Shown one piece after another: positions 40,232 to 41,413 of a stretch of DNA of 64,000 bases. The DNA lies in assembly GCA_963817635.1 (NCBI GenBank), contig CAWFPR010000027.1, forward strand, positions 26,274 through 90,273, given 5' to 3'. Both the position numbers and the translations under genes were made by a program. The stretch is from an uncultured Acidobacteriota bacterium (GTDB lineage Bacteria > Acidobacteriota > Vicinamibacteria > Vicinamibacterales > 2-12-FULL-66-21). The notes below the pieces were generated by a model that searched no databases, was not told the origin of the DNA, and worked only from the letters and a program-made list of their open reading frames with translations. Numbering within the stretch: the stretch's first letter is position 1; every line of letters begins with the position of its first letter.

Positions 40232-40597
40232 ATGAGCGAGAATCTCGGGAATTTCCTCGTTGACTTGGCGTGCGATCCCGCCCTCATGGCACAGTTCCTC
40301 GGAGATCCCGGAACGGTTCTGGCCCGGACGTCCCTCAGTGACGAAGAGCGAACGCTGGTGATGACGCGCGACTCGCGCCTCCTTGCCGGCGCCCTGGGGA
40401 CGACCAGCTACTCGGTGGGCCAGATCATCGAGATCCCGCGTGGAGTGCCCACCAGGAAGAAGGCGCCAGGCAAGAAGAAGAAGACCCCCGGCAAGAAGAA
40501 GGCGCCGCGCAAGACACCGGCGAAGAAGACCCCGGCGCGCAAGCGGCCATCGCGCAAGGCGCCGGCCAGAAAGACGCCAGCGCGGAAGACGCGTTGA
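40232..40597 (+). CDS. candidate split-borosin precursor: Nif11/borosin-binding-domain-like N-terminus, hydrophobic core-like segment, polycationic K/P/A/R tail
   Basis: 121 aa; N-terminal [47 protein letters not shown] (Nif11-like, resembles precursors of split borosins); [13 protein letters not shown]; tail [46 protein letters not shown]; stop overlaps the methyltransferase start (ATGA). Confidence 0.6.
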
Positions 40598-41393
40598 GGT
40601 CCCAGGCACCCACGCCTCCCTCGCCGCGGGGATCGCTCGTCGTTGTGGGCACGGGCATTGCGCTCGCAACGCAGGCGACCCCCGAGGCGACGGAGCACAT
40701 GCGAACAGCCGAGCGGCTGTTCCATCTCGTCACCAGTCCGGCGCACGCGGAATGGGTGCGCCGGATCAATCCGGGCGCGATATCGCTCGAGGACTGCTAC
40801 GCCGAGGGCAAGCCGCGTCCCGAGTCCTACCGGGAGATGGCGGACCGGATCCTCGGCGCGGTACGCGGCGGGTTCCGCACGTGTGCCGCGTTCTACGGGC
40901 ATCCGGGCGTGTTCGCGCAGCCGTCGCACGCGGCGGTCCAGCGGGCGCGCCGCGAGGGGTTCAGCGCGCGCATGCTGCCGGGGGTGTCGGCCGAGGACTG
41001 CCTGTTCGCCGATCTCGGGGTCAACCCGGGCCGTGGAGGATGCCAGAGCTTCGAGGCGACCGACTTCCTCATGTCGCGCCGGCGATTCGACCCGACCAGC
41101 ACGCTGATTCTGTGGCAGGTGGGGCTGCTGGGAGAGTTGAGCGTGCGACGGAAGATGTCGTCGCGACCCGAGCGCCTGCAGGTCCTCGTCGATCGGCTGC
41201 GCCGCAACTACCCGGCGCGCCACCGCGTCGTGCTCTACCAGGCAGCCGAGTACCAGATCTGCGATCCGCTCATTCAGCCGCTGCCGCTCGAGAAGCTGCC
41301 GGCGCAGACAATCACGCCGGCGATGACGCTGTACGTGCCGCCGCTCCCGCAGCGCCGCAGGATCTGCGAATCGCGCGATGGTTTGACGTGTAG
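40594..41393 (+). CDS. borosin-type peptide alpha-N-methyltransferase (tetrapyrrole-methylase fold, OphMA/SonM-like); late frameshift near 41360
   Basis: [56 protein letters not shown]...[11 protein letters not shown]...[12 protein letters not shown] match the OphMA methyltransferase-domain signature; the C-terminal [14 protein letters not shown] is reached only after a 1-nt frame change; the ORF track runs on to 41763 because the in-frame stop is lost. Confidence 0.7.
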
Positions 41394-41413
41394 GGGCGGC
41401 TCGAGAGCCGCCC
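41394..41413. terminator. GC-rich palindrome between convergent stops (methyltransferase and ahcY)
   Basis: GGGCGGCTC-GA-GAGCCGCCC; lies 1 nt after the methyltransferase TAG and ~10 nt after the inferred ahcY stop. Confidence 0.45.

Follow-up and report, generated by a model that had tools for sequence, protein, structure and literature searches.

Genes and features at the locus

In the window (the whole 64,000-nt stretch of DNA analysed, 67% GC), an open reading frame (ORF) on the forward strand at 40232-40597 encodes a 121-aa precursor protein and overlaps the start of a methyltransferase gene; the two genes close a cassette that opens with genes for a sigma factor and a membrane kinase. 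The features of the region are as follows.

35816-36796, minus strand: stand-alone Hanks-type Ser/Thr kinase, divergent from the cassette and given as context (NCBIfam kinase models, E = 3.5e-74)
36994-37614, plus strand: ECF-type sigma-70 factor, cassette gene 1 (TIGR02937, 74 bits against a cut-off of 42.9)
37604-40163, plus strand: Ser/Thr kinase with a transmembrane segment and TPR repeats, cassette gene 2 (frameshift near 38458-38469)
40218-40222, plus strand: Shine-Dalgarno-like GGAGG, 9 nt 5' of the precursor ATG, read from the sequence
40232-40399, plus strand: precursor residues 1-56, SonA-like five-helix borosin-binding domain (BBD) (SonA match, AF2 model and Foldseek)
40400-40438, plus strand: precursor residues 57-69, putative core and expected N-methylation site (alignment in register with the SonA core)
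40439-40597, plus strand: precursor residues 70-121 and stop codon, disordered polycationic tail with (A/T)-P-x-(K/R)-(K/R)-like units (composition, pLDDT and homologues)
40594-41393, plus strand: SonM-type alpha-N-methyltransferase gene with a TTG start and one base missing (PF00590, E = 6e-15; SonM, E = 6e-63)
41393-41414, no strand assigned: G+C-rich, terminator-like hairpin between convergent genes, lacking a T run (MFE -22.9 kcal/mol, z = -3.6)
41424-42926, minus strand: ahcY (S-adenosylhomocysteine hydrolase), convergent and given as context only (about three 1-nt indels; three frames by tblastn)

The methyltransferase is of the SonM type

The tetrapyrrole-methylase fold claimed for the enzyme in the earlier note was recovered as a PF00590 (TP_methylase) match over residues 15-216, with 56 bits against a cut-off of 27.8, and all of the borosin signature motifs quoted there are present. 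Comparison with PDB sequences gave 25 matches at E ≤ 0.01, every one of them a borosin N-methyltransferase, with best E-values of 6e-63 for SonM, 3e-52 for dbOphMA, 3e-49 for OphMA and 1e-42 for MroMA. CobA/CysG, RsmI and Dph5, which the earlier note had weighed as other possible homes for the enzyme, were absent from these matches, and the NCBIfam YabN and precorrin-3B models, whose cut-offs are 525 and 391 bits, scored no more than 32 and 20. The alignment with SonM, the best of these matches, extends over 240 residues (13-252).

The roles of the Y58/R67/Y71 active-site triad of SonM and of its clamp and lock residues have been described (PMC8429565). In the pairwise alignment, each of these nine SonM residues (Y58, R67, Y71, Y93, F99, E146, W166, Q167 and E173) has an identical counterpart in the enzyme (Y69, R75, Y79, Y101, F107, E154, W174, Q175 and E181, respectively), and most of them are invariant in the homologue alignment A2. 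By these comparisons the enzyme is a borosin-clade alpha-N-methyltransferase of the SonM type.

A probable assembly error in the methyltransferase gene

The earlier note had read 40594-41393 as an intact ORF for a 266-aa enzyme and had overlooked a missing base. This interval is 800 nt long and holds no open frame: the frame of 40594 stays open until 41763 (389 codons), and the TAG codon at 41391-41393 belongs to the +1 frame relative to it. The homologues share a conserved C-terminus including RIARWF(D/E), the counterpart of which in the window (11 residues) is encoded in the +1 frame. DNA alignment with the syntenic locus L001 located the absent base after CAGCGC, at 41355/41356, 12 codons short of the gene end, and restoring it yields an enzyme of exactly 266 aa. 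The same defect is carried by the deposited assembly, where the gene was called as a 372-aa read-through protein (P0279).

If the break were taken as real, the conserved C-terminus would be lost and the pair would be an inactive relic, with 135 residues of antisense-ahcY read-through fused to the enzyme. The missing base is indeed present in the deposited assembly and clear in the DNA alignment, but at least five further frame breaks were found within ~13 kb, three of them in ahcY and others in the kinase-TPR gene and a cyclase gene, all intact in L001, which points to assembly indels and not to selective decay. The rest of the enzyme is 88% identical to the intact orthologue P0001 with no other lesion, and the gene has a GC3 of 0.88, which also argues against decay. 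A relic is thus highly improbable; since neighbouring genes are broken too, the base missing at 41355/41356 is probably an assembly indel error.

The precursor carries a SonA-like leader domain and is coupled to the enzyme

The 121-aa protein upstream of the enzyme consists of three parts: a SonA-like BBD, a putative short aliphatic core and a 52-residue K/R/P/A tail. Its coupling to the enzyme, also recognized earlier, is seen in the overlap of its TGA stop with the TTG at 40594 by 4 nt (TTGA), and a 4-nt overlap is also found in L001. This TTG is the earliest possible start in the enzyme frame and the sole one that retains a conserved 10-residue strand. Ten related loci have equivalents of the ribosome-binding sequence, GGAGG or AGGAGG, within short spacers of 20-70 nt.

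The assignment of the first ~55 residues to a borosin-binding domain, put forward in the earlier note, is backed by sequence, profile and predicted fold. The precursor N-terminus matched SonA with an E-value of 3e-3 as a single sequence (phmmer) and 5e-5 as a profile. AF2 predicted helices at residues 3-14, 16-24, 26-31, 37-45 and 48-55 with pLDDT of 81-92, and in the Foldseek search of the BBD model the top PDB matches were all SonA chains (target TM-score 0.64-0.80, rmsd 1.5-1.8 Å over ~50 residues), with BBD/clasp helices of the OphMA type also among the matches. Taken together, sequence and model indicate that the precursor N-terminus is a SonA-like five-helix BBD. A BBD-type ORF lies directly 5' of the methyltransferase gene in most of the 80 loci fetched after a contig profile scan with the methyltransferase alignment, so that the small ORF is conserved beside homologous enzymes. 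A contig scan with the precursor alignment gave 19 pattern matches and no confirmed relative.

Methylation of SonA occurs at L63 and I65 (PMC10549244), and in the core alignment these two residues fall on precursor Q64 and I66, within GQIIEIP. The close homologues keep an alternating aliphatic pattern at this position, G-x-[GI]-[IV]-x-[IV]-x-x-P. SonA requires six residues past its methylation sites, and methylation immediately before proline is not seen. Residues 57-69 are accordingly marked as a putative core in which backbone N-methylation is expected; for the window subfamily, both the modification and its sites are deduced from homology.

A polycationic tail of conserved composition

Residues 70-121 include 16 K, 9 R, 9 P, 7 A and 6 T, contain no acidic residue and have a charge of +25; AF2 gave them pLDDT below 50. 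A spurious GC-rich frame was considered as the origin of the tail and ruled out, because all 16 lysine codons are AAG, GC3 is 0.85, the precursor is the sole K-rich ORF in the window and the tail is conserved elsewhere. Its composition is kept in 9 of 9 close homologues and was found in independent datasets. Among the best 150 representatives, of 294 significant ones, ~100 carry such a tail; it is shared by at least 100 clusters at 50% identity and is present in the Acidobacterial loci L001-L004, L006, L009-L011, L013, L016 and L020. The tail noted earlier is thus real and conserved, while its presumed uniqueness was overstated: as judged from these homologues, the tail characterises the whole of a large family centred on Acidobacteria.

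Tail length ranges from 20 to 90 residues over more than 100 clusters, and the sequences drift fast while the composition is kept. In 113 tails, K accounts for 33%, R for 17%, A for 13%, P for 11% and D+E for 1.3% of residues. The motif P-x-[KR][KR] was observed 213 times in these tails against 103 expected from shuffles (z = 13), and [ST]P.[KR] was likewise enriched over shuffles (z = 6.6). The cassette is the same in the sister loci L008 and L012, where the precursors end in ...GWW(Q)KR and lack the tail, indicating that it is dispensable for the enzyme-substrate relationship. The Thermoanaerobaculia relatives L048, L014 and L031 have lysine-containing repeats (AIKAKT/IKESTK) where multi-core repeats would sit.

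The composition recalls Chlamydia Hc2, the C-terminus of HupB and Rv3852 of M. tuberculosis, and Pseudomonas AlgP, which like the tail have acid-free, disordered K/A/P-rich repeats with (S/T/A)-P-x-K-K-like units. The H1-like bacterial proteins carry such a segment on HU or other DNA-binding folds, whereas the window tail is attached to a RiPP leader domain. Scores against the family models were far below the cut-offs (Pfam HC2, E = 0.005, 17.3 bits, cut-off 40; NCBIfam Rv3852_fam, E = 9e-5, 23 bits, cut-off 100; histone_lik_HC2, 14.7, cut-off 135), so the likeness to H1, Hc2 and Rv3852 proteins is compositional, and homology is not supported.

The pair belongs to a conserved four-gene cassette

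In the Acidobacterial loci, the conserved order is ECF sigma factor, Ser/Thr kinase-TPR protein, precursor and methyltransferase. The window ECF sigma factor is 82% identical to that of L001, and an ECF sigma gene lies 5' of the pair in L001-L004, L008, L010-L013 and L016; its pairing with a kinase gene is kept in ten Acidobacterial loci. Its stop overlaps the start of the kinase-TPR gene by 11 nt, here and in L001. The kinase-TPR protein is split into two ORFs in the window, with the frame change seen by tblastn, and is a single 856-aa gene product with Pkinase and TPR Pfam domains in L001; orthologues (E = 1e-157 to 1e-287) lie directly 5' of the precursor gene in every Acidobacterial locus with enough upstream DNA. 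An orthologue of the stand-alone kinase is found at the same position in L001, L004, L008 and L012. ECF sigma/Ser/Thr kinase pairs of the EcfP/PknT-like kind can act by phosphorylation of the sigma factor.

In the 20-70 nt spacers 5' of the precursor in related loci, the search for a conserved promoter found only the Shine-Dalgarno sequence in common, and a consensus scan for sigma-70 promoters found none. The precursor gene is therefore probably co-transcribed with the kinase gene, as the spacers are short and share only this element. No protease, exporter or other gene is conserved 3' of the methyltransferase gene in 14 Acidobacterial loci.

Comparison with characterised and predicted borosins

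The nearest characterised system is SonM/SonA of Shewanella oneidensis MR-1, which makes shewanellamide A (PDB 7LTC/7LTE). As here, a stand-alone methyltransferase of ~260 aa is accompanied by a separate precursor with an N-terminal five-helix BBD; a short aliphatic core, putative in the window precursor, comes directly after it in the same register, and neither the son cluster nor the window pair includes a protease. A membrane TPR signalling protein is a neighbour in both, a GGDEF-TPR protein in Shewanella and a Ser/Thr kinase-TPR protein in the window. The remaining neighbourhood differs, with the GGDEF protein and a cation efflux pump in Shewanella versus the ECF sigma factor and Ser/Thr kinase here, and the window also differs in its high-GC, Acidobacteria-like host and in the precursor-then-enzyme order with stop/start overlap. 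SonA ends six residues past its second methylation site, whereas in the window precursor the core is followed by a K/R/P/A polycation 52 residues long. Type IV precursors are typically ~50-100 aa long and end a few residues past the core; the window precursor has 121 aa. As all characterised type IV precursors end in this way, tolerance of a 52-residue extension by the enzyme is an assumption here. By homology, predicted fold, conserved catalytic residues and gene coupling, the pair is assigned to the type IV (split) borosins of the SonM/SonA kind, among which the long polycationic tail makes it a variant.

OphMA and dbOphMA, the fungal type I fused borosins behind omphalotin, have the same catalytic domain as the window enzyme (E = 3e-49 to 3e-52). 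OphMA methylates an aliphatic core iteratively in the N-to-C direction, and a C-terminal follower segment comes after the core. Unlike the window pair, OphMA holds enzyme, BBD and core in one chain and acts in trans within a homodimer, and its product is a macrocyclised dodecapeptide with no cationic tail.

Two Acidobacteria borosin precursors predicted by RODEO, OLC43585.1 and OFW11622.1, are listed in Supplementary Dataset 2 of Lee et al. 2024 (bioRxiv 10.1101/2024.01.09.574750) and share the architecture of the window precursor, namely a BBD, a short core and a K/R-rich tail. The tail is G/K-rich in OLC43585.1 and made of AKKAP repeats in OFW11622.1, a protein identical to the precursor of L013. 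Both adjoin methyltransferases of the same clade, with ~61-65% identity to that of the window; these are P0062, encoded in the MAG that also contains OLC43585.1, and the enzyme of L013. An ECF sigma gene homologous to that of the window is listed in the same row block of the dataset. The window subgroup differs from them in its core, GQIIEIP/GVGVGVITP, and in its P/A/T-rich tail. These precursors are known as table entries only, and the main text of Lee et al. 2024 has no mention of a tail, lysine, cationic, kinase or Acidobacteria. The same holds for a K/R tail, kinase and Acidobacteria in the main texts of the borosin literature searched; the survey by Cho et al. 2022 (Biochemistry) lay outside this set, so that a prior description is possible.

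A proposed mechanism and its alternatives

In the mechanism that we propose, the ~266-aa methyltransferase would dock the five-helix BBD (residues 1-56) of the 121-aa protein, and the aliphatic stretch at about V62-I68 would be threaded into the active site, where SAM would provide methyl groups for the backbone amide nitrogen of one or a few core residues. By register with SonA L63/I65, the methylated residues would most likely lie from Q64 to E67, and methylation of I68 would be unlikely since it precedes a proline. The disordered 52-residue tail would remain outside the active site, its first residues serving as the short C-terminal segment that SonM needs past the methylated residues. The enzyme has a calculated pI of ~9.7, which makes electrostatic wrapping by the tail unlikely. 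The product would thus combine a protease-resistant, backbone-methylated hydrophobic patch with a histone-H1-like polycation that may bind a polyanion, such as nucleic acid, polyphosphate or an anionic envelope or membrane surface. Our inference that the tail belongs to the functional product draws on its composition and (A/S/T)-P-x-K/R-K/R grammar in more than 100 clusters, together with the lack of a conserved protease or exporter nearby. As the last two genes of the cassette, the pair is probably expressed as the output of the ECF sigma/Ser/Thr kinase-TPR signalling. The proposal as a whole, a type IV split borosin with a methylated core and a tail retained in a polyanion-binding product under control of the sigma/kinase pair, is held with moderate confidence.

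Instead of being retained, the tail might be a disposable follower, removed together with the BBD leader by housekeeping proteases after core methylation to leave a short linear methylated peptide. It would then serve only solubility, keeping the hydrophobic core unaggregated, or recognition, and the product would be comparable to the 16-mer shewanellamide A. This would fit the sole known bacterial borosin product, a short fragment freed by proteases encoded outside the cluster (PMC10549244; Lee et al. 2024), and the son cluster, which is likewise without a protease (PMC10549244). The tail-less sister precursors in the same cassette (L008 and L012) and the fast drift of tail sequences, with only composition kept, agree with such a role, but neither the preserved proline-centred grammar (z = 13) nor a length held within 20-90 residues in more than 100 clusters would be expected of a mere solubility tag. 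The tail has many bonds between K/R and proline, at which trimming by trypsin-like proteases would be impeded, and the absence of a conserved protease near the pair also weighs against processing of this kind. Removal of the tail as a follower is judged rather unlikely.

The polycation itself could also be the substrate, with iterative N-to-C methylation of the SliM kind running from the core into the K/R/A-rich tail to give a backbone-methylated polycation. SliM methylates a stretch of more than 30 residues, borosin enzymes are capable of dozens of methylations in a row and show little selectivity for residue type, and the Thermoanaerobaculia precursors (L048, L014 and L031) have their lysine repeats at the multi-core position. 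Against this, the window enzyme is closest to SonM, which adds two methyl groups only, and the tail has a proline every 4-6 residues, which cannot be methylated and blocks the preceding residue, as in OphMA variants; moreover, no cationic borosin core was found in the borosin literature searched. Methylation extending into the tail is therefore improbable, and methylation confined to the core with retention of the tail is the preferred reading.

Backbone N-methylation is prized because peptides gain protease resistance and membrane permeation from it, and one bacterial borosin product is known so far. The subfamily joins a predicted methylated core to a conserved polycation and ties both to a sigma/kinase signalling pair in abundant soil Acidobacteria, suggesting a regulated methylated protein with a polyanion-binding or cell-penetrating function. 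Only tentatively can it be said that Acidobacteriota borosin chemistry may build a full-length or core-plus-tail effector and not a small secreted peptide, made on the command of an ECF sigma/receptor kinase pair and binding a polyanion such as the nucleoid, RNA, polyphosphate or the anionic cell surface. In this reading the co-encoded kinase might also phosphorylate S/T-P-x-K/R sites of the tail; in the window precursor T85, T95, T100 and T115 lie in T-P-x-K/R sites. With such an effector, RiPP-type backbone methylation would gain a product class, and ECF/kinase signalling a kind of output, that are both new; if the tail were merely a follower, the pair would be one more type IV borosin. The two-gene system is suited to asking how well SonM-type enzymes cope with a long cargo at the C-terminus of their substrate, and tolerance of it would be of use in engineering.

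Sequences 3' of the pair

The convergent ahcY gene reported in the earlier note was confirmed and is intact in L001 as a 499-aa AdoHcyase. It adjoins the pair only in the window and in its closest relative L001 and is absent 3' of the methyltransferase gene in the other loci, and a functional link, removal of SAH, was rejected on the ground that the adjacency is not conserved beyond L001. Two 'terminators' called on the minus strand, within the sequence that encodes the tail, were also set aside, their number matching chance expectation. The hairpin said to end the pair was found at 41393-41414; it was not called by the consensus terminator scan because it lacks a T run, and it is kept in L001 through a compensatory C-G to T-A change.

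The gene pair encodes a predicted type IV split borosin

Features of the window, with further loci in which the first entry was found (L-numbers denote fetched loci with a related methyltransferase)
36994-40163, +, ECF sigma factor gene and Ser/Thr kinase-TPR gene, identified by Pfam/NCBIfam; also in L001-L004, L008, L010-L013 and L016
40232-40597, +, precursor ORF, 121 aa
40594-41393, +, methyltransferase gene

The methyltransferase matched only the generic TP_methylase domain in Pfam, and the borosin motifs that an earlier note had quoted were all present in it. PDB matches at E<=0.01 were borosin alpha-N-methyltransferases in 25 of 25 sequences, led by SonM of Shewanella oneidensis (6e-63, residues 13-252), dbOphMA (3e-52), OphMA (3e-49) and MroMA (1e-42). 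CobA/CysG, RsmI and Dph5 proteins were absent from these matches, which upholds the borosin-clade placement proposed earlier, and NCBIfam precorrin and YabN models scored far below their cut-offs. All nine active-site/clamp residues of SonM (Y58, R67, Y71, Y93, F99, E146, W166, Q167 and E173; Miller et al., PMC8429565) were identical in the aligned window enzyme (Y69, R75, Y79, Y101, F107, E154, W174, Q175 and E181), and most of these positions were invariant across close homologues. The clade is very large (>6,700 proteins at E<=1e-20), and the nearest named relatives come from Acidobacteria/Vicinamibacterales MAGs.

Residues 4-66 of the precursor aligned with SonA, the Shewanella precursor, in one ungapped block (E=3e-3), and SonA was the top PDB match of a nine-member family profile (E=5e-5). 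An AF2 model built from the family alignment contained five helices within residues 3-55 (pLDDT 81-92), with disorder from residue 59 on. Foldseek analysis of this model against PDB ranked SonA chains first (target TM-score 0.64-0.80, rmsd 1.5-1.8 Å, about 50 residues), followed by OphMA, through its borosin-binding domain (BBD) region, and DesB, through its LigA-like domain. The small size of the domain kept the E-values weak, but SonA led the ranking unambiguously. The methylated residues of SonA, L63 and I65 (PMC10549244), aligned with Q64 and I66 inside the putative core (residues 57-69), which in close homologues shows alternating aliphatic residues (GQIVDVP, GVGVGVITP, GVGIEVIPP) and then a conserved T/P-P end. 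By enzyme, BBD and gene organization, the pair is thus assigned from sequence to the type IV split borosins; the type IV trait missed by the precursor is a short protein stopping just past the core.

BBD residues 5-37 (window 40232-40340) also weakly matched the IniB N-terminal domain (NCBIfam NF038175, E=2e-4), Pfam LigA (E=1e-3) and an NHLP-clan RiPP leader model (E=0.07), a hint that the BBD is one of a broader set of small, helical leader/docking domains.

The methyltransferase frame is interrupted by a probable assembly error

A GGAGG was read 9 nt 5' of the precursor ATG, and the precursor TGA overlaps the methyltransferase TTG at 40594 (TTGA, 4-nt overlap). This TTG is the earliest possible start of its frame and the sole one keeping the conserved N-terminal strand. 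The intact ORF of 266 codons described in the earlier note was not recovered, as the frame of 40594 runs open to 41763 (389 codons). The TAG at 41391-41393 belongs to the +1 frame, as does the C-terminal ending shared by homologues. DNA alignment with L001, the closest and syntenic contig, showed one base absent after CAGCGC at 41355/41356, and restoring it yielded a methyltransferase of exactly 266 aa. The public record carries the identical defect: the gene is deposited as P0279, a read-through protein of 372 aa called on the same contig (194,684 bp).

Genuine inactivation in the window genome would also account for a broken frame. However, further breaks were found in the kinase-TPR gene, ahcY (two internal and the stop) and the cyclase gene, all intact in L001. 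With about six breaks in roughly 13 kb (approximately one per 2 kb), a housekeeping gene included, the pattern is better explained by indel errors of the assembly than by decay and suggests that ORF-level readings of the window should allow for indels. Single-base frame changes were located in 37604-40163 (kinase-TPR), 40594-41393 (methyltransferase), 41424-42926 (ahcY, whose stop is lost through TAT-C-TGA) and about 48371-48384 (polyketide-cyclase-like).

The precursor carries a conserved polycationic tail

The tail (residues 70-121) contains 16 K, 9 R, 9 P, 7 A, 6 T and zero acidic residues (net charge +25), and the BBD plus core are acidic (pI 4.2). A frame artefact was ruled out, since all Lys codons of the tail are AAG, GC3 is 0.85 vs 67% GC in the window, and the precursor is the only K-rich ORF there. 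The same architecture was observed in 8/8 word-search homologues (109-142 aa, 38-74% identical), and the precursor profile had 294 significant matches among 1.84 billion cluster representatives. In a survey of 158 family sequences (nine word-search proteins plus the best representatives among the 294), the BBD was present in 152; a strict filter for cationic tails kept about 100, and in many of the others an acidic linker precedes such a tail.

The composition over 113 tails was K 33%, R 17%, A 13%, P 11%, G 9.5% and D+E 1.3%. P-x-[KR][KR] reached twice its frequency in shuffled sequences (z=13), with [ST]-P-x-[KR] also enriched (z=6.6), indicating a histone-H1-like 'SPKK' grammar beyond mere composition. 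Tail matches to Hc2 and Rv3852 models were compositional and far under cut-off. Tail-less BBD proteins of roughly 75 aa, ending in GWW(Q)KR (VTVIGWWQKR / VMVVGWWKR), occur in L008 (3753-3995) and L012 (3705-3989); as these share the sigma/kinase/methyltransferase cassette, the tail has been gained or lost inside the clade.

Sigma factor and kinase genes precede the pair

ECF sigma and Ser/Thr kinase-TM-TPR genes preceded the pair in all Acidobacterial loci with enough upstream DNA (E=1e-157 to 1e-287), often with a second, divergent kinase gene nearby. The sigma gene shares 11 nt with the kinase gene, and in the 20-70 nt spacer between kinase and precursor an SD was the sole element found. In Thermoanaerobaculia (L014, L021, L024, L031-L033), too, the pair has kinase-TPR genes as neighbours. 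No conserved gene was found downstream of the methyltransferase in the Acidobacterial loci compared, and ahcY adjoins it only in the window and L001. The conserved unit therefore consists of sigma factor, kinase-TPR, precursor and methyltransferase, with no protease or exporter. A hairpin at 41393-41414 (-22.9 kcal/mol, z=-3.6), kept in L001 via a compensatory change, probably ends both convergent transcripts (methyltransferase and ahcY).

A third Hanks-type Ser/Thr kinase paralogue lies at 59614-60810 (-; phmmer E=2e-47 to the L001 kinase), in keeping with the large kinase families that Acidobacteria typically have. Elsewhere in the window, a REP-like tandem repeat at 43977-44130 (period 25, 6 copies, 89% matches, unit TGGGGTCAGACCCCGGCGGCGGGGG), each unit holding a small palindrome (GGGGTC-A-GACCCC), has a divergent ArsR-type methyltransferase gene (42975-43910, -) on one side and a photolyase-like ORF (44054-45616) on the other.

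Proposed mechanism and relation to known borosins

These comparisons established the homology and fold of the pair, its catalytic residues, the coupling of its genes and its conservation. The enzyme would dock to the BBD and methylate the backbone within V62-E67, at one or a few amides. I68 would be an unlikely site because a proline follows, and residues directly before proline are not methylated in OphMA variants. In SonA, removal of the six residues after I65 abolishes activity, and the first residues of the tail would, by analogy, provide the post-core segment needed by SonM. Because the tail grammar is conserved and the pair lacks accompanying genes for processing or export, we favour a product that retains the tail, in which a hydrophobic, methylated patch would be joined to a polycationic handle able to bind a polyanion. 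In one rival, the tail would be a disposable follower and the product a short peptide. In another rival, iterative methylation would continue from the core into the tail.

Like the cassette, the Shewanella son cluster has no protease and adjoins a membrane TPR signalling protein, which is a GGDEF protein in Shewanella but a Ser/Thr kinase here. The chemistry and enzyme family are established, and a sigma/kinase linkage is not mentioned in the available borosin literature. The claim that the tail is unlike any known borosin is overstated. None of types 0-XI as described is defined by a cationic extension, and the main texts of two large borosin surveys mention neither lysine, cationic, Acidobacteria nor kinase. 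Lee et al. 2024 (Supplementary Dataset 2), however, include tailed precursors of this sort from Acidobacteria among their RODEO predictions: OLC43585.1 and OFW11622.1, of which OFW11622.1 has the same sequence as the L013 precursor. The family is therefore already catalogued, though not analysed in the texts compared. For RiPP specialists, the polycationic appendage and sigma/kinase linkage are noteworthy and easily tested.

Precursor diversity across related loci

With the methyltransferase alignment as query, a scan that took one genome from each species gave 80 loci, most with a BBD-type ORF directly upstream, so the small ORF is conserved beside homologous enzymes, a point on which the earlier note had staked its pairing. 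Polycationic tails were found in Acidobacterial loci with enzymes closest to that of the window (L001-4, L006, L009-11, L013, L016) and in one Thermoanaerobaculia locus (L020); in other taxa, precursors end in a short hydrophobic stretch or carry long repeats of the PQIFPQVHPQ type.

The PQIFPQVHPQ(V/L)V-type repeat precursors (BBD, 240-350 aa; L025, L029, L037, L039, L044, L047, L060, L064, L067) come from Alphaproteobacteria, Myxococcota, Burkholderiales and Solirubrobacter; their ORFs stop a short distance before the methyltransferase gene, and L056 has a Met/Pro/Ser-rich version. Thermoanaerobaculia BBD precursors in L048 (1649-2341, -), L014 (7273-8076, -) and L031 (3685-4197, -) contain tandem Lys-containing repeats (AIKAKT..., APIKESTKIGKSSPRV... 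and NIKTKAALP..., respectively) and resemble multi-core borosin precursors whose cores are cationic. Two BBD-core units share one fused ORF in L027 (1014-1484), and two tandem precursor genes occur in L036 (3496-3992) and in Rhizobium L017/L018 (about 3220-3880, ending ...VVVVL / ...VIVIL). In L052, L066 and L072, a BBD-like N-terminal segment is naturally fused to the methyltransferase domain in one ORF, and these fusions could act as single-chain models of the BBD-enzyme interface.
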